Assembly: GCA_963663165.1 (NCBI GenBank)
Contig: OY760175.1
Span: 1,472,001 to 1,536,000, forward strand
Direction: 5' to 3'
Source: an uncultured Desulfospira sp.
GTDB lineage: Bacteria > Desulfobacterota > Desulfobacteria > Desulfobacterales > Desulfobacteraceae
DNA: 64,000 bases
In this document: piece after piece, positions 46,850 through 63,966 of the stretch
Position numbering within the stretch: position 1 is the first letter of the stretch
How the letters are laid out: each line of letters opens with the position of its first letter
Translations under genes and position numbers: made by a program
The notes under the pieces: model-generated
The model's database searches: none
What the model saw: the letters and a program-made list of their open reading frames with translations, nothing else
Told to the model about the DNA's origin: nothing

Positions 46850-48451
46850 ATGGAAAACGTCTTTCTTTACGACACCACCCTAAGGGACGGGATGCAGGGA
46901 GAAAACATCTTTTTCTCGCCCGAGGACAAGCTCAAAATTGCCAGGCGCCTGGATGATGCCGGTATCCATTACATTGAAGGCGGATGGCCGGGGTCCAATC
47001 CCGGGGCCCAGCATTTTTTTGAGCTTGCGGCAAAACAAACCTTCAAGCATGCCAGGATTGCCGCATTCGGCTCCACCCGGCGGCAGGGCATCCCATGCGA
47101 ACAGGACCCGAATCTTTCCGCGCTCATTGCCTCCAAAGCGCCGGTAATCACCATATTCGGCAAATCCTGGGATCTTCACGTCACCGAGGTCATGGAGAAC
47201 ACCAGAGCAGAAAACCTGGACATGATCACCGGGTCCGTGGCCTATCTCATGGGCCATGGCCGGGAAGTGATCTACGATGCCGAACACTTTTTTGACGGAT
47301 ACAAGGCCAATAAAGCCTTTGCTTTAGAAACCCTTGAAGCTGCGGTCAAAGGGGGCACCGACACCCTGGTGCTATGCGATACCAACGGCGGGTCCACCCC
47401 CTGTGAGATTGAAGACATTACCCGGGCCGTGGCGGCTCATTTTAAGGCAACCCCGGGGATCAAAATTGGGATTCATACCCATGACGACTGTGCCATGGCC
47501 GTGGCCAATGCGGTTACCGCCGTTCATGCCGGGGCCGTGATGGTCCAGGGCACCATTAACGGATACGGGGAGAGGTGCGGAAATGCCGATTTAACGGCCA
47601 TCATCCCCATCCTTGCCCTGAAAATGAACCGGAACTGCATCTCAAAAGAAAACCTGGCCAAGCTGCAGAACCTGTCCCGGTTTGTGTCCGAGACGGCCAA
47701 TATGCCGCCGGTCAGCACCCGGGCCTTTGTGGGAAAATCCGCCTTTGCCCACAAGGGAGGGGTCCATGTCTCGGCCATCATGAAGAACCCCAAAGCCTAT
47801 GAGCATATCAGTCCGGAACTGGTGGGCAATGTGAGACGGGTGCTGGTGTCTGAACAATCGGGAAAAAGCAATATAAGGTACAAGGCCCGGGAACTCGGGG
47901 TGGACATAGGAGACGATGAGCGGATTCACCGCCAGATCGTTTCCACCATCAAGGACCTGGAAGACGACGGGTTTGAATTTGATGCGGCGGAAGGCTCCTT
48001 GAAGCTGATCATGGAAAAGATCACCGAACAGTACCAGTCCTACTTTGACCTGGAATCTTTCCGGGTAATGGTGGAAAAGGACAAGGAAAACCCCTGCTAC
48101 TCCCATGCCATGATCAAAATCCGGGTAGGGGACAAAACCGAAATCACATCCGCCGAAGGCGACGGCCCGGTATCGGCCCTGGATAACGCCTTAAGAAAGG
48201 CCTTGTCCACCATTTATCCCCAGATCCAGGACATGCACCTGGTGGACTTTAAGGTCCGTGTCATTGACGGGTCAGACGGCACCGATGCCAAGGTCAGGGT
48301 ATTGATTGAATCCAGGGATGCGGAAAATATCTTTTCCACCATCGGGGTGTCCGAAGATATTATTGATGCCAGCTGGCAGGCTCTGGAAGACAGTTTCCAA
48401 TATAAGCTTAGTCTGGATAAGAATGTGGCAAACGGGAATAACGGTATATGA
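46850..48451 (+). CDS. cimA: Citramalate synthase
   Basis: DTTLRDGMQGE, EGGWPGSNP, FGKSWDLHV, DAEHFFDG, AFAHKGGVH. Confidence 0.93.
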   Translation: MENVFLYDTTLRDGMQGENIFFSPEDKLKIARRLDDAGIHYIEGGWPGSNPGAQHFFELAAKQTFKHARIAAFGSTRRQGIPCEQDPNLSALIASKAPVITIFGKSWDLHVTEVMENTRAENLDMITGSVAYLMGHGREVIYDAEHFFDGYKANKAFALETLEAAVKGGTDTLVLCDTNGGSTPCEIEDITRAVAAHFKATPGIKIGIHTHDDCAMAVANAVTAVHAGAVMVQGTINGYGERCGNADLTAIIPILALKMNRNCISKENLAKLQNLSRFVSETANMPPVSTRAFVGKSAFAHKGGVHVSAIMKNPKAYEHISPELVGNVRRVLVSEQSGKSNIRYKARELGVDIGDDERIHRQIVSTIKDLEDDGFEFDAAEGSLKLIMEKITEQYQSYFDLESFRVMVEKDKENPCYSHAMIKIRVGDKTEITSAEGDGPVSALDNALRKALSTIYPQIQDMHLVDFKVRVIDGSDGTDAKVRVLIESRDAENIFSTIGVSEDIIDASWQALEDSFQYKLSLDKNVANGNNGI

Positions 48452-48507
48452 GACTTGGGACTTGGGACTTGGGATAAATTCCCCATATCCCAAGTCCCAT
48501 ATCCCCA
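48449..48507. repeat. Inverted heptamer arrays (GGGACTT)n / (AAGTCCC)n
   Basis: tgagacttgggacttgggacttggga ... tccccatatcccaagtcccatatcccca. Confidence 0.75.
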
Positions 48508-48532
48508 TAACATTTTATAAGAGGACGAAAAA

Positions 48533-50077
48533 ATGAGCGAATCAAATAGAATCATTGTATTTGACACCACCTTGAGGGACGGGGAACAGTCTCCGGGGGC
48601 CAGCATGAACCAGGCGGAAAAACTCAGGATTGCCACCCGCCTGGAAGACTTGGGGGTGGACGTGATCGAAGCCGGGTTCCCGGCGGCCTCACCAGGGGAT
48701 TATGAGGCGGTCAAGGCCATTGCCGGGGTTTTGAAAAAAAGCCAGATCGCGGCCCTGTGCCGGGCAAACGAAAGCGATATCTTAAGGGGATGGGACGCCA
48801 TCAAGGATGCGGCAAAACCCAGAATCCACACCTTTATTGCCACTTCGGAACTGCACATGAAGTACAAGCTTCAGATGGAAGCGGACGATGTCCTCAAGCA
48901 GGCCGTGGAAGCTGTCCGCCTGGCCAAAAGCTTTACGGACAACGTTGAATTCTCCGCCGAAGACGGGTCACGGTCCGACCCTGACTTTTTGTGTGCTGTC
49001 TTTAAGGCGGTGATCGAAGCCGGGGCCACCACGGTCAACCTGCCGGACACCGTGGGATACGCCATTCCCGAAGAATTCGGCAACATGGTCAAATATGTCA
49101 TGGCAAACACCCCCAACATGGACCAGGCCGTTTTAAGCGTTCACTGCCATAATGACCTGGGCCTTGCCACGGCCAATACCCTGGTGGCCATTCACAACGG
49201 GGCCCGGCAGGTGGAAACCACCATCAACGGCATTGGCGAGCGAGCCGGCAACACCTCCATGGAAGAGGTGGTCATGACCCTGAACACAAGGCCCAATTAC
49301 TATCCCCAGACCACCGGGATCGACACCACCAAAATCTATCCCTTAAGCCGTCTGGTTTCCATGATCACCGGGATCATGGTCCAGCCCAACCGGCCCATTG
49401 TGGGGGCCAATGCCTTTGCCCATGAAGCCGGGATTCACCAGGACGGGATCCTCAAAAACCCCATGACCTATGAGATCATGAAGCCTGAAACCGTAGGCAT
49501 TTCCACCAACAGCCTGGTATTGGGCAAACATTCGGGCCGCCATGCCCTTAAGGCCCATATCGAGGAAATGGGGTATGAACTGTCTGAACAAGACATCAAT
49601 GTGGTCTTTAAAAAGTTTAAAATCCTGGCTGACAAGAAAAAAAGAATCCAGGACGAAGACATTGAGGCCCTGATCAATGAAGGTGTCTTAAGAAGCTCAG
49701 AAGTCTTCAGCCTGGAGTACATCCATGTCGTAAGCGGCAACACCGTATACCCCACAGCCAGTGTCAAGCTGTTGATCAACGGCCGGCCGGCCCAGTGTTC
49801 CCTTGAAGGCACCGGCCCCATTGATGCCGTCTACAACGTGATTTCCAAGCTTACCGGCACCAAGTCCGAACTGCTCCGGTTTACCATCTCGGCGTTGACC
49901 GAAGGCACCGACGCCCAGGGCGAGGTGATTGTAAGGCTCAGGGAAGACGGCATCACGGCCCTGGGAAAAGGCTCGGATTCCGATATCATCACGGCCAGCG
50001 CCTTGGCCTATATCAACGGCCTGAACCGCCTCGAATACTTAAAGGAACACCCGCCCAAAAAACAGCAGGTGGTGTAA
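48533..50077 (+). CDS. leuA: 2-isopropylmalate synthase
   Basis: DTTLRDGEQSPG, HCHNDLG, GERAGN, AHEAGIHQDG, LGKHSGR. Confidence 0.96.
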   Translation: MSESNRIIVFDTTLRDGEQSPGASMNQAEKLRIATRLEDLGVDVIEAGFPAASPGDYEAVKAIAGVLKKSQIAALCRANESDILRGWDAIKDAAKPRIHTFIATSELHMKYKLQMEADDVLKQAVEAVRLAKSFTDNVEFSAEDGSRSDPDFLCAVFKAVIEAGATTVNLPDTVGYAIPEEFGNMVKYVMANTPNMDQAVLSVHCHNDLGLATANTLVAIHNGARQVETTINGIGERAGNTSMEEVVMTLNTRPNYYPQTTGIDTTKIYPLSRLVSMITGIMVQPNRPIVGANAFAHEAGIHQDGILKNPMTYEIMKPETVGISTNSLVLGKHSGRHALKAHIEEMGYELSEQDINVVFKKFKILADKKKRIQDEDIEALINEGVLRSSEVFSLEYIHVVSGNTVYPTASVKLLINGRPAQCSLEGTGPIDAVYNVISKLTGTKSELLRFTISALTEGTDAQGEVIVRLREDGITALGKGSDSDIITASALAYINGLNRLEYLKEHPPKKQQVV

Positions 50078-50847: not shown

Positions 50848-51035
50848 TCATATAACGGCCACGGGCCGCCTTGGTTATCCAACCAAGAACCGCCCACAAC
50901 GAATAATGAAAGTCTTCTCAGGACGTTAGTGAGACTTTCATATAACGGCCACGGGCCGCTTTGGTTATCCAACCAAGAGCCGCCCACAACAAATATTGAA
51001 AGTCTTTTCAGGACCTTAGTGAGACTTTCATATAA
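50848..51035. repeat. Tandem 90-bp direct repeat (2 units plus a few bases) with internal hairpins
   Basis: TCATATAACGGCCACGGGCCG... at 50848 and 50938, TCATATAA again at 51028. Confidence 0.9.
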
Positions 51036-53602: not shown

Positions 53603-53879
53603 GAAAATTTAGGGAATTAGAGCAGAGACTGAAGCAGGGGCAAATCCGGAAGCCACGGGGTTGTTCTTTATAACTGTCCGGCCAATGCTGAGAAGCAAAC
53701 CAAAATCAGGGACCGTAGCGGCTCTATATGCCCCGGTCGGCTGAGCCCCCCGATATGATGAACACCACGGTCATAAAACCCATGAAAGACAAATTCAAAT
53801 CAACACGAAGAAAAAAGCTTCAAAATCTGAGCTGTTTGAACGGGTATAAAGATAACCAACCTTACTGTGCTAAACCGCA

Positions 53880-53975
53880 TTTTTTGGGGTTAAAAAGGGT
53901 CGATTAAGGCCATAAAACCCCTTACTTTTATAACCTTTTCTCTATATTTCAAGCCGCTTAGCGCGGCCCGACCCC
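53880..53975 (-). repeat. Inverted, diverged partial copy (copy 0) of the cassette-array repeat
   Basis: Minus strand reads GGGGTCGGGCCGCGCTAA...GCCTTAATCGACCCTTTTTAACCCCAAAAAA, matching the first ~100 bp of copies 1-4. Confidence 0.8.
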
Positions 53976-54029
53976 CGCCGCCGACCGCCGAAAGCCAAAA
54001 GAAAAAAAGGGAAAAAAACCTCACACCAT

Positions 54030-54069
54030 TGTTACTTTTTTTTCATAATTGTATTACTTTTTTTTCACA
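54030..54069 (+). promoter_or_regulatory. Candidate enhancer sites for a sigma-54 activator (PrsR-type) upstream of the PEP-CTERM gene
   Basis: TGTTAC-T-run-CATA and TGTATTAC-T-run-CACA about 150-190 bp upstream of the sigma-54 box. Confidence 0.5.
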
Positions 54070-54217
54070 ATTTCTCCATATCTTTCGCAATCACAAATAA
54101 AAAATAAAAACTGAATGCTATTCATAATATTTTTTCTAATTTATTTATATTCAAAAACACCTGCCAATAAGCTTTTTCAAAATTATATTTCATTTCTCAT
54201 TCTCAAATTGTTGAAAT

Positions 54218-54233
54218 TGGCACGCCTCTTGCT
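54218..54233 (+). promoter_or_regulatory. Sigma-54 (-24/-12) promoter
   Basis: TGGCACGCCTCTTGCT fits TGGCAC-N5-TTGC. Confidence 0.85.
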
Positions 54234-54442
54234 AACTTTTATATTCAGTGAGTGCCTAAATACACGACCGTATTTTTAGAAAATTGGCATCATGAACGCT
54301 CACTATGTAAAATTTTCAGGGCAATATGCCTATCGCAGTCAAAATACTGCTGGAATCCCAATAGTATGTAGTGCGTTTGGGAAATAAGCCCTCGAGAATC
54401 AAACTTAATTTACGTTATTTTTCAAAAGGAGGAGGTTTGCAC

Positions 54443-55567
54443 ATGAAAAAAGGTTTATTAGTCTTCTTTACTTTAATTTTTTTAAGTTTCAGTTCAGCTT
54501 ACGCCACCACGTACAGCGAGGAATTAGCGGTTGTTAATGCGATAGCTCAGTATCTGGTGGATAATCAAAATAATGACGGTGGATGGGACTGGACACAGGC
54601 TGCTGATGGCTCTGGAGATACGAATTCCGACACTGGATCAACCCAGAACACGGCAGGTGCAACTGCCCGTGGCCTGGTTTCTGCGTATAATCTGACAGGA
54701 AATGTTGACTATCTAAATTCGGCTATTGCAACTGCAAACTACATTATAGAGAACCAGACGACTGTGGCTGGAGCGCATAAAGACTCTTTGTTTCTGTATG
54801 AACTTGATCAAACCCTTACAAATTCGGGACTTGATAATACATATAATGGAACAACTAAAACCTACGGGAAGTATGCCCAAGACGCTGTCTCCGATGCCAT
54901 AACTGCATTCACAACAACTGGAAAATATAAGACTTACTCATGGACAACTTCTGGAAAACTTTCAACTGATATTATCGCTGCTTTTAATGAAATGAGGGGA
55001 ACAGATACTGACACCTACGCCGCATTAACACTCTGGGAAGCAGGCGAGTGGGCACAGGCAATCTATACAATCTCTACTGACACGAATTATAAAACTGAAG
55101 CAATCGAACTTGCCAACACATTATTTGATTTAGCTATAGGAGACGATGGTCTTTTTAACACCACAGATGATGATTATCTTGGAGCATATGCAGATATGTA
55201 TGCGCTTGGGCTTTCAGGACTTCTTGAAGGCATGGCAACAGTAGGCTCCGATTTATCAGACATTGAAGCTCTTGTAGAATACCTTAGTTCATTAGGCACC
55301 TATGGAGATTATCAGGTAGCCGGATATTACGCTCTTGCAATGGAGTTGGCAGGAGAAATTGCTTTGGCTGAGGCTGCTGGTGTTGATATATATGATATCT
55401 ATGAGTCTTATGGATTAAACAATGGTTATAGTGCAATTTACGTGGAATGCCTGGGAGAAGCCCTTCATGGGCTATCAAGCAACATGGTTCCCGAGCCCGC
55501 CACTATGGCCCTTTTCGGACTCGGCCTTTTGGGAATTGCTGGCATTAGCAGAAGAAAAAACAGCTAA
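54443..55567 (+). CDS. PEP-CTERM surface protein
   Basis: Signal peptide MKKGLLVFF...AYA; C-terminal VPEPATMALFGLGLLGIAGISRRK; SD AGGAGGAGG; AT-rich coding sequence. Confidence 0.92.
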   Translation: MKKGLLVFFTLIFLSFSSAYATTYSEELAVVNAIAQYLVDNQNNDGGWDWTQAADGSGDTNSDTGSTQNTAGATARGLVSAYNLTGNVDYLNSAIATANYIIENQTTVAGAHKDSLFLYELDQTLTNSGLDNTYNGTTKTYGKYAQDAVSDAITAFTTTGKYKTYSWTTSGKLSTDIIAAFNEMRGTDTDTYAALTLWEAGEWAQAIYTISTDTNYKTEAIELANTLFDLAIGDDGLFNTTDDDYLGAYADMYALGLSGLLEGMATVGSDLSDIEALVEYLSSLGTYGDYQVAGYYALAMELAGEIALAEAAGVDIYDIYESYGLNNGYSAIYVECLGEALHGLSSNMVPEPATMALFGLGLLGIAGISRRKNS

Positions 55568-55631
55568 TTACGGGAATGAAATGTAAATTGAAATGGGTTT
55601 TGAATTGTTGTTGAAAATTGTGAAATGGGTT

Positions 55632-55865
55632 GAAATGGGGTCGGGCCACGCTAACCTATTTAAAATACAATGGATAGGCTTAATTTTTGACCCTATTTCC
55701 GCCTTAATCAGCCCTTTTTAGACCCAAAAACAAAGGATTAAGGGATCAAAAGCGAGGAACGCAAGTACCCCATACCCCACAGTACCCCGGCCCCCAAATC
55801 AGGGCCCGACAAAAACCAAAAGCCGGTCGAAATTTCCTTTTCGACCGGCTTTTGGTTTAATGCTC
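55632..55865 (+). repeat. Cassette-array repeat copy 1
   Basis: GAAATGGGGTCGGGCCACGCTAA ... TATTTCCGCCTTAATC ... CGGCCC..GGGCC ... hairpin AAAGCCGGTCGAAA..TTTCGACCGGCTTT. Confidence 0.95.
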
Positions 55866-55887
55866 CCCATAGCCTGGTAAACAGTTT

Positions 55888-55938
55888 TTAAGGTTTCAGG
55901 ATCTGCATAATGTTTCTGGCACCATGAAGTACTCTTTG
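55888..55938 (-). pseudogene. 3' remnant of a ParE/RelE-family toxin gene
   Basis: Minus strand translates QRVLHGARNIMQILKP*, resembling the RVLHGARD C-terminal signature of ParE-type toxins; cut off at repeat copy 2. Confidence 0.6.
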
Positions 55939-55939
55939 A

Positions 55940-56164
55940 GAAATGGGGTCGGGCCACGCTAACCTGTTTAAAATACATTAAATAGCCTTAATTTTTGGCC
56001 TTATTTCCGCCTTAATCAGCCCTTTTTAGGCCCAAAAACAAGGGTTAAGGATTTATAACAGGCGAACGTAAAAACCCCATAAACCCCCGGCCCAAATTAG
56101 AGCCGGACAAACCCCAAAGGCCGGTTGAAATTTTCTTTTCGACCGGCCTTTGGGGTTCATGCTC
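55940..56164 (+). repeat. Cassette-array repeat copy 2
   Basis: Same conserved blocks and terminal hairpin as copy 1. Confidence 0.95.
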
Positions 56165-56266
56165 TTTGCCGGTACTTGATTTCGGCCACCACAGCCGGTG
56201 TCCCAGCTATATCAATTGTTTTCATAACCTCTCTGGATAAAAACAATTCAATCCCTATAATTATCG

Positions 56267-56674
56267 TTACGCCTTCCGGGCATCAAGGGTCTTGACGTGG
56301 GGATATGCCAGGATTCTATTATCCGCCGTAATCAGCTGTAAATTATGCTTTCTGGCCGATGCCACAATAATCTGGTCAGCAGGATCTTTGTGAAACTCCC
56401 CGGGAAGGGTGTTGGCCTCAATGGAAATATCAATTGATAATGGTACAATCCTGATCCCTTTAGGATTAGCAGCAGCTGTCAGCCAGTCAGCCAGAGGCAA
56501 AGACAGACACAATTTTCCCAAAGAAACTTTCTTGGCAATTTCCCAAGGGGTAATGGCCGATATGGCGAGGTCTTCCGAGCTGGAACGGCGTAGAACATCG
56601 CTTATGTTTCCGGATAAATCACCCGAGGACTCAGCCATCCAGATCAGGACATGGGTATCAAGTAAATACGTCAT
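56267..56674 (-). CDS. PIN-domain toxin (VapC-like)
   Basis: YLLDTHVLIW, SAITPWEI, HKDPADQII, ITAD. Confidence 0.9.
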   Translation of the reverse strand: MTYLLDTHVLIWMAESSGDLSGNISDVLRRSSSEDLAISAITPWEIAKKVSLGKLCLSLPLADWLTAAANPKGIRIVPLSIDISIEANTLPGEFHKDPADQIIVASARKHNLQLITADNRILAYPHVKTLDARKA

Positions 56675-56909
56675 TTTCGGACGCTTCCCATTCATCGTCC
56701 CCCAGGGGAGAGTCAAAATCTTCTGCTATGTATGTAACGGTACCTGCCAGAGCTCCGAAAATTGGGTTTCCCCTTTTCTTTGGCGCAGGACAGGAAACAA
56801 CAGCCACAACTTTTCCCCGGTTCGTTACATGAATAGGTTGATCCAAATCCGGCAGCTTTCTTAAATATTCTGTGCATTTTGCTTTAAATTCAGTGACGGC
56901 GACCCGCAT
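56658..56909 (-). CDS. Phd/YefM-family antitoxin
   Basis: VTEFKAKC..L....TNRGKVVA; SD GAGGTG before MRVAV. Confidence 0.88.
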   Translation of the reverse strand: MRVAVTEFKAKCTEYLRKLPDLDQPIHVTNRGKVVAVVSCPAPKKRGNPIFGALAGTVTYIAEDFDSPLGDDEWEASENDVFT

Positions 56910-57063
56910 ATCACACCTCATTTTTAAACTATTTAACCATATTATATAGTCCCAAGGTCGATTTATCAAGACAGATTATACAACGGGTCCGTGTCGTTGT
57001 ACCAAACCGCCAATGCGGAAATGGGGTTTGGAAATTTGGAAATGGGGTTTGGAAATGGGGTTG

Positions 57064-57293
57064 GAAATGGGGTCGGGCCACGCTAACGTATTTAAAACAC
57101 AGTAAATAGCCTTAATTTTTGGCTTTATTTCCGCCTTAATCAATCCTTTTTAAGCCCAAAACAGGGATTAAGGGGGGGATGCCCGAACCAACGAGCTCAA
57201 ATACCACATAAAACCCCCGGCCCCCCAAATCAGGGCCGGACAAAAACCAAAGGCCGGTCGAAATTTTTTTTTCGCCCGGCCTTTTGGGTTCAT
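57064..57293 (+). repeat. Cassette-array repeat copy 3
   Basis: Same conserved blocks and terminal hairpin. Confidence 0.95.
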
Positions 57294-57348
57294 ATTTTAA
57301 GTTAGCAAGACTGGAAACCGGGAAATCGCCCCCGGAGTTGTTAACAGA

Positions 57349-57675
57349 TTATTCGCCGTACATGTCGGTTATCAGTTTCCTTAGTTGGGCTGTTTTGGTT
57401 TCAGACAGGCGGTCAATTCTATTTTTTAATCTTTGTTTGCTGATGGTGCGAATTTGATCAACGGCAATTTCAGCATCTTTCTGCGCGCATTTAATCTGTA
57501 ACCGGGTTCTCCATCTTGGATGAAGCTTTGAAGTCAATGGACAGATGACAATGGTTTCAAGGTATTGATTCATTTCATCACGGCTGACAACCACGACCGG
57601 CCGGACCTTTTTGATCTCACGGCCAAGGGTGGGGTCAAGATCGGCAAAATAGATATCATACCGTTTAATATCCAA
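57349..57675 (-). CDS. MazF/PemK-family toxin
   Basis: YFADLDPTLGREIKKVRPVVVVS, CPLTS, DQIRTISKQRL; probable TTG start overlapping the antitoxin (ATG 57684 is an alternative). Confidence 0.9.
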   Translation of the reverse strand: MDIKRYDIYFADLDPTLGREIKKVRPVVVVSRDEMNQYLETIVICPLTSKLHPRWRTRLQIKCAQKDAEIAVDQIRTISKQRLKNRIDRLSETKTAQLRKLITDMYGE

Positions 57676-57940
57676 AATCCTCATCCTCGAGTCCATCCGC
57701 CAGCGTTACATCAAACTCATCCCAATTTTCCTTTTCCCCGGCCATTTCTTTACACGTTTCCTCCCAGGACAGCTTGCCTTCCTCTTCTTTTTTCCGGAGA
57801 AGGAGTCCTTTATCGGTTTCTTCAAGCACCAGCATATTCATGAATCCATACTTTTGAATGATGTCCTTTGGGATACGGATTCCCCTTGAGTTTCCAATGG
57901 GAATGAGTTTAATGGTATTCACCCGCTTTGCTTTTTCCAT
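57665..57940 (-). CDS. AbrB/MazE-family antitoxin
   Basis: KLIPIGNSRGIRIPK. Confidence 0.9.
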   Translation of the reverse strand: MEKAKRVNTIKLIPIGNSRGIRIPKDIIQKYGFMNMLVLEETDKGLLLRKKEEEGKLSWEETCKEMAGEKENWDEFDVTLADGLEDEDFGY

Positions 57941-57967
57941 TTGAGCCCCTCTCTTTGATTGGATAGC

Positions 57968-58014
57968 GTAGTTACAGTAATTACAATAATAATGAAAATC
58001 ACAATCAGTGTCAA
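57968..58014 (-). promoter_or_regulatory. Promoter and operator carried inside the mazEF-like cassette
   Basis: Minus strand TTGACA-17 bp-TATTAT; palindrome GTAGTTACAGTAATTAC at 57968-57984. Confidence 0.65.
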
Positions 58015-58087
58015 TGCGTGGTCACCCAAAGCTTCAAAAGGGTTCAAGGAGTGGTGGCAAAGGCGTGAAATGGAAATGAAATGGTGT

Positions 58088-58306
58088 GAAATGGGGTCGG
58101 GCCACGCTAACCTATTTAAAATACAATAGATAGGCTTAATTTTTGACCCTATTTCCGCCTTAATCAGCCCTTTTCAGGCTCAAAAAACAGGAATTAAGGA
58201 TTAGCAAGCTCAAAGATGCTATAAATTCACCGGCCCCATATTAGGGCCCGACAAAAACCAAAGGCCGGTCGAAATTTTTTTTCGACCGGCCTTTGGGGTT
58301 CATGCT
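58088..58306 (+). repeat. Cassette-array repeat copy 4
   Basis: Same conserved blocks and terminal hairpin. Confidence 0.95.
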
Positions 58307-58370
58307 GTTTGTTTGTTGAGGTACTTTTGAAAAATGAGGTCTGCCTTGCCATGACAGGAACCCGATCAAA

Positions 58371-59531
58371 TTAAAGGCTGCTGCCACATGCCCGCCACCC
58401 CATAACCTGTATCCCCTTTTGCTGATAGGAGTCATCTCCGGCGTAAATCAACGTCGGCGTTTGGGCTTTCTCTTTGGCAAGGGAACACCATTTTTTAAGT
58501 CCGGCAAAAGATTCATGTGTCAAAGTGCGGCCCGACTTAATTTCAACCGGAGTTAAATAGATCCCGTTTTCCATAATAAGATCAACTTCATTGCCGTTGC
58601 TGTCCCGCCAGAAAAAAAAGGCCGGTTTTTCGCCCTGGTTCAGTTTTGATTTTATCATTTCTGAGACAATAAAAGTTTCAAAAATACTGCCCCGCAAGGG
58701 ATGGGTTATCATCTGTTCAGATGTTCTGATCCCTAAAAGCCAGGATACCAGGCCAACATCGTAGAAATAGAGCTTGGGCATTTTTACCAGCCGTTTATTA
58801 AAATTCTCATGATGGGGACGAAGAAGAAAAATGATATAACTTGCCTCAAGGACAGATATCCATGATTTTACAGTATTATGGGTAATCCCGCATTCAGTCG
58901 CCAGAGAAGAAAGGTTTAGAAGCTGCCCTGTCCTGCCGGCGCACAGCCTTACAAAGCGCTGGAATGTTTCCAGATCCTGAATTTTGAGCATTTGCCTGAC
59001 ATCCCGTTCTACATAGGCGGTTACATAAGCGCTGTACCAGGCAGAAGGCTGAAGTCCCCGGTCATAAATCGGTGGATAACAGCCGGTCAGCAGCATGGTA
59101 TCAATACTGCCTGGCAACGCACTCGCAAGGGTAAGTTCCGGTATGGAAAAAGGCAGCAGTTCAACAAAGGCCGTCCGTCCGGCAAGGGATTGTGTAATAC
59201 CGGACATCAGGCCGAACTGCTGAGATCCCGTCAATATAAAAAGCCCCATTCCACCGTTATTATCCACCAGGGTTTGGAGATAGGACAAAATTTGAGGACA
59301 TCGCTGCACTTCATCCAGAACCGCTCCGTTTGGAAACCGGGCAAGAAAAGAACGGGGATCTTCTGTTGCGGCCTGCCTGAGATCCGGCTCTTCAAGAGAT
59401 GCATATGGGTGATTTGAAAAAACCGCCCTGGCAAGGGTAGTCTTACCTGATTGGCGTGGTCCGGTCAGGGTTACAACGGGAAATCCGCCCAGCAGGTTTT
59501 CAAGTATTTCTCTTGCATTTCGATGAATCAT
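58371..59531 (-). CDS. AAA_14 ATPase with DUF4143 domain
   Basis: TGPRQSGKTT, LDEVQ, LTGSQ, YVERDV, PKLYFYDVG, GSIFETF, FFWRDSNGNEVDL, VEIKSG. Confidence 0.9.
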   Translation of the reverse strand: MIHRNAREILENLLGGFPVVTLTGPRQSGKTTLARAVFSNHPYASLEEPDLRQAATEDPRSFLARFPNGAVLDEVQRCPQILSYLQTLVDNNGGMGLFILTGSQQFGLMSGITQSLAGRTAFVELLPFSIPELTLASALPGSIDTMLLTGCYPPIYDRGLQPSAWYSAYVTAYVERDVRQMLKIQDLETFQRFVRLCAGRTGQLLNLSSLATECGITHNTVKSWISVLEASYIIFLLRPHHENFNKRLVKMPKLYFYDVGLVSWLLGIRTSEQMITHPLRGSIFETFIVSEMIKSKLNQGEKPAFFFWRDSNGNEVDLIMENGIYLTPVEIKSGRTLTHESFAGLKKWCSLAKEKAQTPTLIYAGDDSYQQKGIQVMGWRACGSSL

Positions 59532-59593
59532 GGCAAATTTCTATAAACCTCACTCAAAATGAAATATAAATTCATTTCATACATTAAGCCGGA

Positions 59594-59630
59594 TTATGCA
59601 ATTTGTAAATAACTTTTACAAATTGCATAA
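59594..59630. promoter_or_regulatory. Perfect 16-bp-arm palindrome upstream of the DUF4143 ATPase
   Basis: TTATGCAATTTGTAAA-taact-TTTACAAATTGCATAA. Confidence 0.7.
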
Positions 59631-59975
59631 AAGACTCTTGGGGCCTATATATTTTGGGAGTGAAATGTGAAAAAAGCGCCGCCCACCGCGCACACGCATT
59701 CTAAAACAAATCAGAATGTGTTCCGGTCCGTTCAAAAACAACTTTATCCGGTTCAATTATATAGATCAGCAGCCAATCAGATTCAATGTAACATTCCCGG
59801 CACCCCTTCCAATTGCCGATCAGCTTATGATCCCGGTTGAGAATGGTCACAAAAAATCATGGAAAAATTGAAGATAATTTGCAAGATATGTCAGGTTTGA
59901 GGCAGAAGTTCCCCTGTTTATCTCGCAAATAATCGTGAAACTCCTGCCTCCCCACCCAATAACAGGGCAGGAGAT

Positions 59976-60563
59976 ATGCTATCAGAAGTTCTGAAAAACG
60001 AAAGTTTTTTTTGGGATCTATACAAAATAGATCTGGCAACAGCCGAACGTTATAGACAGATGAAGTGCCCCCACTGCCAGGGACCGTTGTATTATGCCAA
60101 TTATCCGCGCAAACCCAGGGGGGAGCCTGAAGGGTTGTCTGAAGAATGTTTTTTACAATTCAGTTTATGTTGCGGAAGGGAAGGCTGTCGACGTCGTTTG
60201 ATCCCGCCAACCTGCCGTTTCCTTGGTAAAAACATTTACTGGTATGCGGCCATTCTGACGATTGTGTCCGACTGGCAGAACCAATCTGTAGGTATCACGA
60301 TGTCCAGGTTTGCTGAAACAATCGGTATCTCCCGCAACACCCTTAGCCGCTGGGTCAGCTTATTCAAAGAAATATTTCCAACAAGCTCTCAATGGAAGAA
60401 AATCCGGGGCCGAGTACCTGCAAGCGTAAAAAATGATCGTCTTCCAGCAAGTTTGGTCAACTTCTATCTGCATCAACAGGCGTCCATCAAAAAAACGTTG
60501 ATCTCCTGTTTGTCATTCTTGTCTCAAGGCAGTGAAATATCACAAAAAATAAGGGCCGGGTAA
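59976..60563 (+). CDS. Transposon accessory protein with Cys motifs and HTH-like segment
   Basis: CPHC, CCGREGCRRR, ISRNTLSRW. Confidence 0.75.
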   Translation: MLSEVLKNESFFWDLYKIDLATAERYRQMKCPHCQGPLYYANYPRKPRGEPEGLSEECFLQFSLCCGREGCRRRLIPPTCRFLGKNIYWYAAILTIVSDWQNQSVGITMSRFAETIGISRNTLSRWVSLFKEIFPTSSQWKKIRGRVPASVKNDRLPASLVNFYLHQQASIKKTLISCLSFLSQGSEISQKIRAG

Positions 60564-60678
60564 TCTCACGCAGAAGATGGGCGTGGCCTTGGGCGCTCAA
60601 CTGTTCTATCAAAGGGGCCGGGATTTTTATCAGCATTTCGCTGAAAATTTTAACTCAAAATTGAAAGGACCCCGGCCT

Positions 60679-62124
60679 ATGAACAGTAAAAACCAAAGTC
60701 CGGTTGATAACTGGGCTTTGTTTCGCTTCTCAGTCGTTGGCGGTTTGCTGGCAAATCCGCCGGCCAAAGGTGAGCTGCGCAAGGAACTGGAAAAGCTTTC
60801 CTATCAGATTTACACCCATCCCATCACGAACGAATCAACGGTATTTCATTTTTCAACTATTGAAAGCTGGTATTACAAGGCAAAAAATGCCCAGGACCCC
60901 ATTATTGCTTTAGGGCGGAAAGTTCGTTCTGACTATGGCGGTTCAATTGTATTCACACCTGAACTGATCCGGATGCTGGGCAGACAATACCGGACTTATC
61001 CGAACTGGAGCTACAAACTGCACGCAGATAATTTCGCAGCAGAACTCCAGGAAAAGGAGGCTTCAGTATCGGTACCATCCTATGCCAGTGTCCGGCGGCG
61101 GATGATCGAAAGGGGGTGGACCAGGAAGCCCTCAGCAAAGAAAAAACAGACAGCGGGTATGAAAATTGCCGCAAAGCGGTTCGAAAGCCATGAAATCCGA
61201 GGATACGAAGCAGAATATGTTCACAGCCTGTGGCATCTGGATTTTCATGAAGGCAGTCTGCGGGTGGTGGATAACAACGGTAACTGGTATACGCCCAAAG
61301 CCTTATGTATTCTTGACGACCATTCCCGCCTGTGCTGCCACATCCAATGGTATTCAGGAGAAACCACCCAGGATTTGATTCATGGATTGACCCAGGCATT
61401 TTTCAAAAGGGGGCTTCCCAGGGCACTGATGACGGACAACGGATCTGCCATGACCTCCCATGAGTTTTGCAACGGTCTTAAAAAAACAGGGATACTTCAT
61501 GAAACGACACTGCCCTACAGCCCTTATCAAAACGGTAAGCAGGAAGCCTTTTGGGGAACCCTTGAAGGCAGATTGATGGCCATGCTGACCCGGGTGGACC
61601 CTCTGACACTGGAATATCTCAATCACAGCAGTCAGGCCTGGGTCGAGATGGAATATAACAAAACCAGGCATAGTGACATCGGCACATCTCCTGTTCAACG
61701 CATGCTTGAAGGCAAAGATGTTTCCCGGCCGGCACCGGATGAAGAGCAACTGAGGTTCGCCTTTACAGTCTGCGAATCCAGAAATCAGCGAAAATCTGAC
61801 GGTACCGTGTCCATCAACGGGGTAAGATTTGAGATCCCTTCCCGGTTTCACCATATCCCTCGGTTACATGTCTGCTTTGCCAATTGGGATAAATCCATGG
61901 CCTGGCTCATGGACCAGAGAACCGGCAAACAGATTGCGCAGATCTACCCCCAGGACAAAATCAAAAATGCTTCAGGAAAACGAAAGATCAAGTCGAGACC
62001 TGAGCATACCATTCTACCGGATGAAACATTGAAAGAATCCGAGCCTGCATTATTAAGAAAACTGATGGCCGAGTATGCCCAAAGCGGCATGCCTCCAGCC
62101 TATCTTCCCAAAGGAGAATCATGA
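60679..62124 (+). CDS. DDE integrase/transposase (rve core, Mu-like C-terminal domain)
   Basis: LWHLDFH, LDDHSR, MTDNGSA, PYSPYQNGKQE, YN...HS, DGTVSINGVRFEIP; start after GAAAGGA. Confidence 0.9.
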   Translation: MNSKNQSPVDNWALFRFSVVGGLLANPPAKGELRKELEKLSYQIYTHPITNESTVFHFSTIESWYYKAKNAQDPIIALGRKVRSDYGGSIVFTPELIRMLGRQYRTYPNWSYKLHADNFAAELQEKEASVSVPSYASVRRRMIERGWTRKPSAKKKQTAGMKIAAKRFESHEIRGYEAEYVHSLWHLDFHEGSLRVVDNNGNWYTPKALCILDDHSRLCCHIQWYSGETTQDLIHGLTQAFFKRGLPRALMTDNGSAMTSHEFCNGLKKTGILHETTLPYSPYQNGKQEAFWGTLEGRLMAMLTRVDPLTLEYLNHSSQAWVEMEYNKTRHSDIGTSPVQRMLEGKDVSRPAPDEEQLRFAFTVCESRNQRKSDGTVSINGVRFEIPSRFHHIPRLHVCFANWDKSMAWLMDQRTGKQIAQIYPQDKIKNASGKRKIKSRPEHTILPDETLKESEPALLRKLMAEYAQSGMPPAYLPKGES

Positions 62125-62948
62125 ACAACAAACAGCTTCTGGCTTATTACGGCCTTAAATGGAACCCTTTTTTTCCTAATATCCCCGTGGAAGCCTTATG
62201 GCATCCGCCATTGATGAACAGTTTTATTTTTCGTCTTGAGAATATGACCCTGAACGGGGGCTTTGCTTTGATCAGCGGGGACCCCGGCCTTGGCAAATCC
62301 AAGGCGTTGCAGATGATTGCCCAAAAGTTCGGTAAACTTGACGAGGTAGTTGTCGGGGTAATGGAACGTCCCCAAAGCAGTGTCGGAGACTTTTACCGGG
62401 AAATGGGAGTTTTGTTTGGTGTCAATTTGAGCCCTGCCAACCGGTACGGCGGGTTCAAGGATCTTCGGGAGCGCTGGAAAAGTCATGTAAAAACCACCTT
62501 GTTCCGGCCCATCCTGCTCATAGATGAGGCCCAGGAGATGCTGACCGGATGCTTAAATGAACTGCGTTTGTTGAACAGCGCGGACTTTGACTCCCAAAAC
62601 CTGTTGACCACCGTGATTTGCGGCGATGACCGGCTCCCGGAACGGTTCAGATCAAGATCCCTGGTATCGCTGGGAAGCCGGATGCAGTTCCGGCTGACGC
62701 TGCTTCCCTATGTCCGGGATGACCTGCTGGATTACATGGATCACAGCCTGAACCAGGCCGGCGCCCCGCACTTAATGACGAAAACTCTGATCAGGACCCT
62801 TGCAGACCATTGCGCCGGCAACCTGCGGGTTCTTAACAATATGGCCGCAGACCTGCTGACTGCGGGGATTGAAAAAGAACTCAATCAATTGGACGAAAAG
62901 CTTTTTATGGAAGTCTATTCCAGACAGCCGCCCAATAAAAAATCATAG
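62121..62948 (+). CDS. ExeA/TnsC-like AAA+ ATPase
   Basis: YGLKWNPF, GDPGLGKS Walker A, LLIDEAQ Walker B, GNLRVLNN; ATGA overlap with the transposase. Confidence 0.88.
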   Translation: MNNKQLLAYYGLKWNPFFPNIPVEALWHPPLMNSFIFRLENMTLNGGFALISGDPGLGKSKALQMIAQKFGKLDEVVVGVMERPQSSVGDFYREMGVLFGVNLSPANRYGGFKDLRERWKSHVKTTLFRPILLIDEAQEMLTGCLNELRLLNSADFDSQNLLTTVICGDDRLPERFRSRSLVSLGSRMQFRLTLLPYVRDDLLDYMDHSLNQAGAPHLMTKTLIRTLADHCAGNLRVLNNMAADLLTAGIEKELNQLDEKLFMEVYSRQPPNKKS

Positions 62949-62957
62949 GAGAACAAT

Positions 62958-63140
62958 ATGGGTATTTATGATGATCCGGACATGAAACTGGAAGAAATCA
63001 CACAGGAATTGGAACATTTTATCCTGGATATGGTCCTTGCCGGACTTGAAAGCTTGAATATGGAATATCGGGCCTTCAGGCGATTCCAGAAACAAAGGCT
63101 CACGGAAAAGAACCGTCATAAAGAACACGAGCCGTTTTGA
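62958..63140 (+). CDS. Small hypothetical protein
   Basis: 60-aa ORF with AGGAG SD. Confidence 0.5.
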   Translation: MGIYDDPDMKLEEITQELEHFILDMVLAGLESLNMEYRAFRRFQKQRLTEKNRHKEHEPF

Positions 63141-63177
63141 ACGTACGCCCGGACTCCAAAGGTCCGGGCCTGCCTCA

Positions 63178-63966
63178 ATGGAAAAAATACTTTGGAAAAT
63201 CGGCAATTATTTTAAGCACCGCTTCAGCCTGGCAGTTCTTGATGAAATTAAGGGCCGGTGGCCCGTTCTCCCCTCTTGTAAAAACATCCCTTATCTTAAA
63301 GCTGAAAATGCCGGAGGAAGGCACATCCTGATCAGACCTGATCCTGTTATTCAGCCTTATTATTTTCTTGCCGACGATTTAAACATTGACCTGCTTATCC
63401 GGCATCATCAATCCATATCAAACCGCTTTAAACCAGGCAGGATGGTTATAGAAACATCTCCCGGCAATTATCAAATTTGGATTCACAGTGACCGTCCGTT
63501 AAGCCTTCCCGAAAAAAAGTATTGGTTGGAAAACATGCACAGTGATCCCGGCGCCGACCCGAAAAACAGGTGGGGCAGATGCCCCGGGTTCAGGAACAGA
63601 AAAGCAAAACACAGAACGCCTTCAGGACAATACCCTTTGGCAAAGCTATTATGGGTGGACTGGAAATGCCAGGCTATTGTCCCTGAAATAGAATTATCCT
63701 CCCAACCTCAAGAAGTCTTTTCCCATCAACCCCGGGGGGGAGTGTGCCATAACGGTAATATTTCCCGCTCCCTCTATGATAAGGGTGACGAATCTGCCAC
63801 TGATTTTGCATATGCTCTGGCCCTCTATAGAAGAGGTTTCTCACGAATGGAAATTTACAATCGCATTATCAATGAAAGGCAGGATTGGATTAATCATGCG
63901 GGTGAACGAAAAAAAACACAGTATCTGATCAGGACATTACAGAAAGCTGAAAAAATTATCAGTTAA
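63178..63966 (+). CDS. RepB-type DNA primase domain protein
   Basis: LADDL, IETSPGNYQIW, DPGA, RCPGFRNRK and C-terminal DESATDFAYA...Y..RT..KA, as in RSF1010 RepB'-like primases. Confidence 0.78.
   Translation: MEKILWKIGNYFKHRFSLAVLDEIKGRWPVLPSCKNIPYLKAENAGGRHILIRPDPVIQPYYFLADDLNIDLLIRHHQSISNRFKPGRMVIETSPGNYQIWIHSDRPLSLPEKKYWLENMHSDPGADPKNRWGRCPGFRNRKAKHRTPSGQYPLAKLLWVDWKCQAIVPEIELSSQPQEVFSHQPRGGVCHNGNISRSLYDKGDESATDFAYALALYRRGFSRMEIYNRIINERQDWINHAGERKKTQYLIRTLQKAEKIIS

Follow-up and report, generated by a model that had tools for sequence, protein, structure and literature searches.

Stutter tracts outside GGGG-type repeat ends as likely marks of nicking and re-joining by a little-studied tyrosine transposase

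The window analysed here covers 64,000 nt of contig OY760175.1 (assembly GCA_963663165.1, uncultured Desulfospira sp.; its genome is G000) and carries repeat units on the plus strand with cargo genes on the minus strand between them. On the left lies a TIR head of a related subfamily in the opposite orientation (53870..53975, minus strand, G-run at 53975); immediately outside this head is a short re-iteration of GGCG type. The PEP-CTERM protein gene that follows (54443..55567, plus strand, Pfam PF07589) has its stop codon 9 nt 5' of stutter tract 1 (55577..55636, plus strand), which is made of degenerate TGAAAT(G1-3) units and then the final leader. Unit 1 (55637..55862, plus strand) consists of a TIRYT left end of ~110 bp (GGGGTCGGGCCACGCTAA...TTAAGG), a variable middle and a perfect hairpin with 20-bp arms (55813-55858), which is likely a terminator for the minus-strand cargo. 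Next to it is a region with a 3' fragment of a parE toxin gene (55866..55937, minus strand), 91% identical to an intact parE region at G000 1536852-1536930; the match stops exactly 7 nt 5' of the G-run of copy 2. The 7-nt leader of this copy (55938..55944, plus strand) is free of stutter and marks a putative cut at 55937/55938. Unit 2 (55945..56160, plus strand) is again built of a TIR end, a middle and a hairpin (56110-56157), and is followed by a Phd-like antitoxin and PIN/VapC toxin pair (56267..56909, minus strand; the antitoxin Pfam match is weak and below cut-off). Stutter tract 3 (57017..57068, plus strand) has four partial units, ending at +5, 0, +5 and +5 relative to the G-run, and then the final leader. 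Further along lie unit 3 (57069..57293, plus strand), a MazE-like antitoxin and PemK/MazF toxin pair (57349..57940, minus strand; antitoxin match below cut-off), stutter tract 4 (58065..58092, plus strand) and unit 4 (58093..58304, plus strand), with an AAA_14 and DUF4143 ATPase gene downstream of it (58371..59531, minus strand).

The tracts are where the original prediction, made from the letters of the window, had placed them. Stutter had been described at copies 1, 3 and 4, and we found the units from 55577, at 57017-57074 and at 58066-58098, beside the G-runs of the intact copies at 55637, 57069 and 58093, respectively. Copy 2 (G-run 55945) has no stutter, as had been noted, and the base 5' of GAAAT, described as mostly junction-specific, is T, A, G and T in copies 1, 2, 3 and 4. 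The tracts are no assembly artefact: over 54000-59900 the window and assembly G001 have no differences other than homopolymer indels, all of them away from the tracts, and Logan contigs reproduce the tracts with no other letters. Tract 1 was recovered in X1 (55400-55660) and X3 (55400-55718), the tract of copy 3 in X1, X3 and X6, and that of copy 4 in X1 (57242-58116) and X7 (57897-58095), the X7 contig having fewer than 31 letters to the right of the tract. These runs represent two studies, and X1 and G001 might derive from the same source as the window. A minor contig in X1 and X2 appeared to be an in-strain variant and was rejected; it has a different PEP-CTERM gene tail and junction letters absent from G000, and hence comes from another organism or strain.

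By sequence match the window repeat is shown to be the TIR of a TIRYT-type HUH/Y1 transposase clade. It matches the ends of the cognate Y1 gene, which lies elsewhere in the genome (G000 804749-806108); this best-matching gene is interrupted by IS200, and an intact paralog has degenerate TIRs. Homologs of the transposase were found in 23 of 121 genomes of the order (E<=1e-30). Among 30 transposase loci, several of them cut by contig ends, 12 have inverted TIRs at both ends, 9 at one end and 9 at none. All 12 aligned proteins have the residues H61, H63 and Y122, and by fold the best match is to E. coli TnpA-REP 4ER8 (E 4e-6). Pfam Y1_Tnp matches above cut-off, and NF047646 matches with E 1e-18, below its own cut-off. 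The protein has the NHxH and W[EQ] motifs of TnpA-Y1 subclass 2.1; it reads YID(L/M)NM, has no Y---NP and lacks the proximal SS motif. Judged from these two missing motifs, the clade was not filed under subclass 2.1. The C-terminal tail is modelled at low confidence and has no Pfam HTH match. The TIRs form dispersed single, dimer and cluster repeat families, of which the window family reads GGGGTCGG (7/8) and not GGGGWSAS, and the sister families GGGGTCAG and GGGGACAC in G000 fit GGGGWSAS.

The stutter is general and one-sided. Collecting ends, which the original prediction had proposed as a genome-wide check, gave a partial copy of the site's own leader on the outer side of 102 of 312 TIR ends and on the inner side of 4 of 312. 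A further set from other genomes has stutter at 23 of 51 outer sides and 0 of 51 inner sides. For same-family ends, an own-leader unit lies no more than 45 nt upstream at 15 of 29 sites in G000 and at 19 of 76 public-genome sites. Before counting, we removed TIR heads that were duplicates or not terminal, sites with less than 60 nt of flank and 6 public sites identical or near-identical to those of G000. Identical tracts away from repeat ends had been named as counter-evidence; at 47 sites in GC-rich genomes where this motif matches by chance, no own-leader unit was found (Fisher p 5e-5, a p-value that, like the others here, overstates since sites in one genome or family are not independent). 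Swapping in the leader of another site gave at most 0.066, pseudo-junctions gave own-leader units at 1 of 87 and 3 of 222, and other GGGGNN hexamers have at least two repeats at only 0.6-0.9% of sites. Among five plasmid loci, one, in Skermanella mucosa, has the same pattern, with the start at -9 and the ends at +8 and +19; two of the others have no TIR, and two have TIRs and no stutter. One TIRYT query found no relative in viral contigs, no holder was listed in RNA data, and the contig data caught no stutter event in progress.

As read from the aligned joints, the units are shown to have a fixed start and a variable end, to lie on the outer side only and to need no microhomology. Of the 45 unambiguous (zero-microhomology) joints, 37 have their start 7 to 9 nt outside the G-run (13 at -7, 16 at -8 and 8 at -9); 4 others start at -10 and one each at -5, -6, -11 and -12, and the ends of these units spread from +1 to +23. 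The units are 7-39 nt long; most pass the G-run, up to +30, and 11 of 173 pairs end at 0. Five unambiguous starts in a clade-specific set fall at -5 to -7, so the offset is not a single number. With no length filter, the 81 partial heads include 16 unrelated ones (0-2 nt of leader match), none at 3 nt and 49 at 6-9 nt. Microhomology of 0, 1 and 2 nt was observed at 0.58, 0.23 and 0.07 of 77 joints, versus 0.51, 0.30 and 0.12 for random joins. Adjacent pairs (n=173) parse cleanly in 77 cases, contain letters that neither side explains in 62 (1-4 nt of them in 38) and are periodic in 34; secondary slippage, errors or later rearrangements therefore contribute. G-run contraction could be the source of such letters in 9 of 20. 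An ordered ladder of units was rejected, the nearer unit being longer in 28 cases, shorter in 17 and equal in 27, which is not significant.

The cuts inferred from the genomes share no dinucleotide (46 sites). A purine at +2 in 37 of 46 is confounded by the leader composition of the families and was not taken as a sequence preference, and an apparent G depletion at the cut is an artefact of the zero-microhomology filter. Pairing of the leader with the inner arm, as guide or template, was rejected as a general rule: it was found at 5 of 29 own-genome sites, all close kin and in the window subfamily only, and at 0 of 72 public family sites, and the matches in family B (27 of 135) stem from facing dimers. 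Single-strand folding of the TIR head is no better than that of shuffles (z-scores -1.3 to +1.5). The characterised TnpA-REP enzymes act on single-stranded hairpins and have their CT or CA cut chosen by a guide, according to the available part of PMC8266576. The TIR head, with no hairpin better than shuffles, is unlike these substrates, an observation that tells against the mechanism proposed below.

The alignments show that foreign DNA, copies of the TIR and entire elements are joined at a common offset of -5 to -9. In G074:C66, two copies of an entire element share 99.9% identity over 1026 bp; one ends at -8 and the other at -9, their tracts differ, and no target duplication surrounds them. 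Near-identical TIR copies at different public loci have exactly 7 nt of leader in common in 7 of 13 pairs. We retained 23 foreign-DNA joints after removing 4 of 27 rows (a same-unit pair, a self-hit and one inside an adjacent repeat). Twelve of the 23 lie at -5 to -9, including window copy 2 (-7), none at 0 to -4 (p 1e-4), and 11 are further out than -9 under strict alignment. BLAST ends had put 5 of the 27 rows at 0-1; direct alignment attributed these to overshoot or to one duplicated unit. Since the leader travels with the element and the offset is common to whole-element and foreign joints, GAAAT is mostly the element's own leader and not cargo. What the stutter re-copies on the 5' side is mostly this travelling leader, and cargo is copied only in units starting further out (G000 2678685 and 3090811). 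No simple filled/empty site pairs were found for the 23 joints within 12 kb. Native flanks of foreign joints lie 1-9 kb downstream in 6 of 23 cases versus one within 12 kb upstream, and an upstream TIR matching long-range duplication was seen in the window only. Long-range duplication of a TIR with its cargo is suggestive only.

The tracts re-copy parts of the element tip in tandem, and we consider it probable that they were made from a nick ~7-8 nt outside GGGGTC by host-polymerase extension and re-joined by the TIRYT-type transposase. The transposase would bind the TIR and nick at a measured distance from it, presumably on the strand that reads GGGG; as with other HUH enzymes, the leader would then carry a 5'-phosphotyrosine and the flank a 3'-OH. 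Strand-displacement synthesis would copy the leader plus 0-30 nt and then stall, probably against bound protein and in many cases at the G-run edge or no further than +8. The new 3'-OH would attack the phosphotyrosine, and replication would fix the duplication. An intact TIR would survive, so the cycle of nicking, extension and re-joining could repeat, and a wobble of the nick by 1-3 nt would turn over the leader and give locus-specific units. In the window the enzyme would act in trans. A precedent is the BIME amplification model (Fig. 7B in the accessible part of PMC3333891). The original prediction of a local origin at a fixed site agrees with our data, which place the units on one side only, except that the site lies ~7-8 nt outside GGGGTC and not at it. 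Its enzyme footprint now has a candidate enzyme, a TIRYT of a described class, and a role of this enzyme in capture stays hypothetical.

An alternative hypothesis could be a two-cut exchange, in which the transposase cleaves near -8 in one copy and at varying points inside the TIR in a sister copy and joins both, with no polymerase involved. TnpA-REP cuts several sites and recombines them in vitro (available part of PMC3333891), and the exchange predicts the same fixed start and requires no microhomology. We nevertheless regard it as unlikely, as it needs unspecific cuts at many positions (+1 to +23) in a conserved binding motif, yet no foreign-DNA joint falls at 0 to -4. A TIR-bound protein might also stall the replication fork, the nascent strand falling back and restarting near the edge of the footprint with no nick at all. 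One-sidedness and ends near the G-run would be accounted for, and the unexplained letters at many joints suggest error-prone synthesis; but fall-back requires homology, no excess of microhomology was found, and the offset common to transposition and foreign-DNA joints would be left unexplained, which makes this reading rather improbable.

Host enzymes acting repeatedly on a staggered double-strand break at the element end are a very improbable source. The leader would be duplicated if an overhang of 7-8 nt were filled in and re-ligated, as in the pairs ending at 0, but most units pass the G-run, which would require a movable second nick, and the G074 copies have no target duplication. Ordinary slippage at a G-rich motif, or an assembly artefact, is barely credible: chance motif matches and other GGGGNN hexamers do not stutter comparably, the tracts recur in G001 and in contigs of two studies, and the start is fixed while the end varies and microhomology is no higher than in random joins. 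The original prediction had likewise set microsatellite slippage aside. The controls refute both as the origin of the tracts, and slippage stays as a secondary process, the 34 periodic pairs having probably grown further by it once seeded.

The nick-and-extend reaction favoured above may be extended to a wider reading, which is tentative and somewhat doubtful: TIRYT as an HUH enzyme that nicks ~8 nt outside each TIR by distance, not by hairpin or guide, with the same reaction building cassette arrays. The nicks would fall on opposite strands at the two element ends. Synthesis aborted within 40 nt would give stutter, and a run of hundreds to thousands of bases would duplicate a TIR with its cargo and insert it at the nick of a resident TIR. 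Polar toxin-antitoxin cassette arrays would arise with no integrase, as in the window. Here unit 1 together with the parE fragment resembles a 308-bp run-off copy, joined at -7, of a unit situated 9 kb downstream. In G000, insertion directly after PEP-CTERM genes would also be favoured.

The tracts are likely traces of the sites at which a little-studied tyrosine transposase nicks, allows short copying and re-joins. TIRYT is already known as a class (2013), and in the openly accessible literature searched we found nothing on the footprint or on the TIRYT cut position or mechanism. The tracts would serve as a fossil cleavage map that gives the position (-7/-8, +/-2), the side, the likely strand and the true element ends, and as support, recorded in genomes, for the nick-primed amplification that was suggested for BIMEs in 2012. 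A cut position makes a one-week cleavage and strand-transfer assay possible. If true, this would be a distance-measuring, sequence-tolerant HUH nickase, unlike all characterised Y1 enzymes. For annotation, the elements extend 7-9 nt beyond the GGGG motif.

The closest known system is the TIRtron with its TIRYT (Di Nocera, De Gregorio and Rocco 2013, PMC3733652, as far as its accessible text goes). Like it, the element here has a Y1/HUH gene between inverted repeats beginning GGGG(T/A)C, not GTAG REPs, and TIR copies dispersed as singles, dimers and groups, frequent in deltaproteobacteria. It differs in the TIR sequence given above versus GGGGWSAS, and in Y-I-D-L/M-N-M versus Y---NP. GGGGWSAS itself occurs in some TIRs only and is not needed under the definition of TIRYT in the accessible part of PMC3733652. 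TIRYT has been tentatively equated with TnpA-Y1 subclass 2.1 (Quentin et al. 2018, PMC6006769) and also with RAYT group 1 (Bertels et al. 2017, PMC5581495), in the portions available; the former puts subclass 2.1 in 14.9% of strains and TIR-flanked RAYT-like enzymes as the largest class-2 group. The accessible text of these three papers does not describe stutter, cut site, a 7-8 nt leader or a mechanism. The REPtron (E. coli TnpA-REP, REP/BIME) has the same fold, as the 4ER8 match indicates, and the nick, 3'-OH extension and Tyr-5'P attack proposed for BIMEs (Ton-Hoang et al. 2012, PMC3333891, available part) fit the tracts. Unlike groups 2.2/2.5, there is no GTAG-footed hairpin here and no shared C|T or C|A cut among the genome-inferred sites. 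In the BIME model, as given in the same part of PMC3333891, the new strand has to be cut a second time and BIMEs are added whole. The units here, by contrast, are short, with a variable end and a start at a set distance.

Inverted repeats of the Tn3 family are GGGG-terminated, and the element ends here likewise begin GGGGTC; unlike in DDE/Tn3-type elements, the boundary is off the G-run (none of the 23 joints falls at 0 to -4), no target duplication was found, and a Y1 gene lies between the repeats. The telomere likeness of the original prediction proved superficial: unlike telomerase products, the units vary from locus to locus, as the swapped-leader control reflects, so there is no common template. 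IS91, ISCR and Helitron elements, with their rolling-circle initiation and one-ended transposition, use Rep-type enzymes and have asymmetric ends: the 5' end is nicked at a fixed point, the 3' end varies, and neighbouring DNA may be carried over. Replitrons have 'fuzzy ends' (PMC10288648, available part). The element here resembles all of these in its fixed start, variable end and possible neighbour carry-over; unlike IS91, ISCR and Helitron, it has symmetric inverted ends, both with the footprint.

The stutter tracts are real and mechanistically informative. Re-reading the sequence bears out the four repeats and three tracts announced for the window: the G-runs (GGGG motifs) of the intact copies lie at 55637, 55945, 57069 and 58093, and in each repeat, ~225 bp long, a variable middle separates a conserved 110-bp head from a strong hairpin. 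Upstream of unit 1 lies a PEP-CTERM gene, a PIN toxin with a Phd-like partner and a PemK toxin with a MazE-like partner are encoded on the minus strand between the repeats, and an AAA_14/DUF4143 gene lies 3' of unit 4. Assembly artefact is a poor explanation, as the tracts are identical, with 0 other letters, in a second assembly (G001) and in run contigs of two studies; G001 and run X1 are possibly of the same source as the window, and the read data are contigs only. In another run (X7) a depth-60 contig holds tract 4 through the third G (window 58095) and then unrelated DNA whose next letters are absent from the window's own genome (G000); another strain may carry an insertion in its G-run here.

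Other structures lie near these repeats. A four-gene element at 59976-63966 (unknown ORF, rve integrase-core transposase, AAA_22 ATPase and RepB-type primase) sits between the cargo of unit 4 and two more units past the window. Two tandem 90-bp copies at 50848-51027 follow a MazE/PIN pair, and a similar unit (G000:C1 ~1536660-1536750) occupies the middle of the repeat unit at G000 1536551.

The stutter is widespread, one-sided and locally made. We pooled 312 ends of TIRs (the end repeats, counted from the G-run): 95 from the own genome (5 families), 76 from a scan of a genome collection and 141 of a sister family from a metagenome scan. The collection scan gave 128 stretches; once we had dropped non-terminal or duplicate TIR heads, six public sites (near-)identical to own-genome sites and flanks below 60 nt, these 76 family ends remained, along with 47 chance matches from GC-rich DNA. 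A partial copy of the site's own leader, the ~7-9 nt just outside the G-run, was found within 45 nt outside the TIR at 102 ends and inside at 4, and at 0/47 chance matches. With another site's leader substituted, at most 0.066 of sites score. The original inference that the tracts are made locally holds. A further TIR set from other genomes gave 23/51 versus 0/51, and one of five plasmid loci, on an alphaproteobacterial plasmid, has the same pattern.

The units, i.e. partial re-copies of leader and element tip, have a fixed start and a variable end. We obtained 173 adjacent pairs at 101 sites, of which 77 parse without extra letters, 62 carry unexplained letters and 34 are periodic. Units start at -7 to -9 in 37 of the 45 joints without microhomology, while their ends range from +1 to +23. 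Removing the length filter left the result unchanged (81 partial heads of at least 6 nt), the leader match being 6-9 nt in 49 heads, 3 nt in 0, and 0-2 nt in 16 that are unrelated. The outer 1-3 leader bases are variable, and where a unit has its start further out, a few bases of cargo are copied as well (G000 2678685, 3090811). Microhomology at the joints is not above that of random joins, and this speaks against an origin by slippage, in line with the original proposal. No shared dinucleotide was found at the inferred cut sites. Separate heptamer runs of the GGGACTT/GGGATAT type, with a conserved AT-rich upstream part, are not TIR stutter (G000:C1 471970, 1459954, 1480083, 2566099, 3198086, 4135945 and others; window 48214-48536 region).

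The same offset evidently marks the real end of the element. Two whole-element copies in G074:C66, with 99.9% identity over 1026 bp, run from -8 of the left TIR to -9 of the right, with no target duplication around them, and since their tracts differ, tracts form after a move. When nearly identical TIR copies from different public loci are paired, 7 of 13 pairs have exactly 7 leader bases in common. When the DNA flanking a TIR upstream matches a homolog elsewhere in the genome, the strict alignment ends 5-9 nt before the G-run in 12/23 cases, including window copy 2, whose parE 3' fragment stops exactly at -7; it ends at 0-4 nt in 0/23 and further out than 9 nt in the remaining 11. As joints and TIR copies are bounded at the same offset, GAAAT is the leader of the window subfamily and travels with the TIR. 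Between the two G074:C66 copies lies a 374-aa ORF of unknown family (L338:2445-3569), a composite-transposon-like layout.

In all four window units (e.g. 55628-55705), and in this subfamily only, an inner arm ~50-62 nt downstream is the complement of the leader and G-run, and the leftmost tract-3 unit has an 8-nt match to this arm; the head may have originated as a facing dimer that has since decayed. Facing TIR dimers in miniature, 43-65 bp long, occur at G000:C1 596421/596475, 597258/597312, 3937734/3937777 and in an array at 3255196-3259315, and in three of them both arms share an identical 9-10 nt leader.

GGGGTCGGGCC occurs at 35 sites in the genome, many of which follow tracts of their own upstream bases. 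Of the 14-15 Y1 transposase genes, several lie between inward-facing GGGG(T/A)C repeats, each of its own type, that stutter too. The window's family brackets the IS200-interrupted gene at G000 804749-806108, and the 110-bp head corresponds to the DNA immediately 5' of its start codon. The IS200 copy (G000:C1 804853-805444), one of three near-identical copies in the genome, is one Y1 element within another. Among 121 genomes of the order, 23 have transposase homologs, with this TIR at both ends in 12 of 30 loci, at one end in 9 and at neither in 9. All 12 of 12 aligned sequences retain the HUH histidines and Tyr122.

The products of HUH chemistry are a 3'-OH and a 5'-phosphotyrosine. If the GGGG-reading strand were nicked near -8, the 3'-OH would lie on the flank, directed into the element; this could be extended by strand displacement until it stalls, and the new 3'-OH would attack the held 5' end, giving a duplication with a fixed start and a variable end, with no need for homology and with the TIR intact for the next round. 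That the transposase defines the fixed site by some route is very probable, while this exact route is only moderately favored. Against it, many joints carry extra letters, the cognate gene is broken in the window's genome, and no hairpin or guide was found at the TIR such as the characterised TnpA-REP enzymes require (PMC8266576).

Cassette capture is treated as a hypothesis, because neither a filled/empty site pair nor a matching upstream TIR was found elsewhere. The four window units and the two past the window share one orientation, unit 1 with its parE fragment resembles a truncated copy of the unit 9 kb downstream, and 6 of the 23 native flanks are located 1-9 kb downstream of their own TIR. 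These features would be compatible with long run-offs of the same reaction.

At window 55567 and G000:C1 2881601, 4834997, 807170 and 6204571, the stop codon of a PEP-CTERM gene borders on a TIR leader or tract. A TIR head lies within 100 nt of 5/70 PEP-like tails (4 TIR families) versus 10/3837 long open frames, with one more case on a contig in runs X1/X2; at public TIR sites the adjacency was found in 0/74 and 0/134. It recalls the TnpA-REP/procA association in picocyanobacteria, where TnpA-REP genes face procA genes (bioRxiv 10.1101/2020.03.09.984088), a finding to which its authors attach a caveat.

The element class is already in print. The layout is that of TIRtron/TIRYT (PMC3733652), but the window's family departs from the GGGGWSAS motif and does not match the Y---NP and SS motifs of TnpA-Y1 subclass 2.1 (PMC6006769); because of these deviations we file it as TIRYT by layout and claim no subclass 2.1 membership. 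The predicted transposase fold (pLDDT 77) matches E. coli TnpA-REP best. Our literature search, with supplements and subscription papers outside it, found no published account of the stutter, leader or cut site; tested here are the offset, measured from three separate joint kinds, the microhomology and the association with one particular transposase clade. The proposed route is close to the BIME amplification model as drawn in Fig. 7B of PMC3333891, which has a second cut where ours would have a stall.
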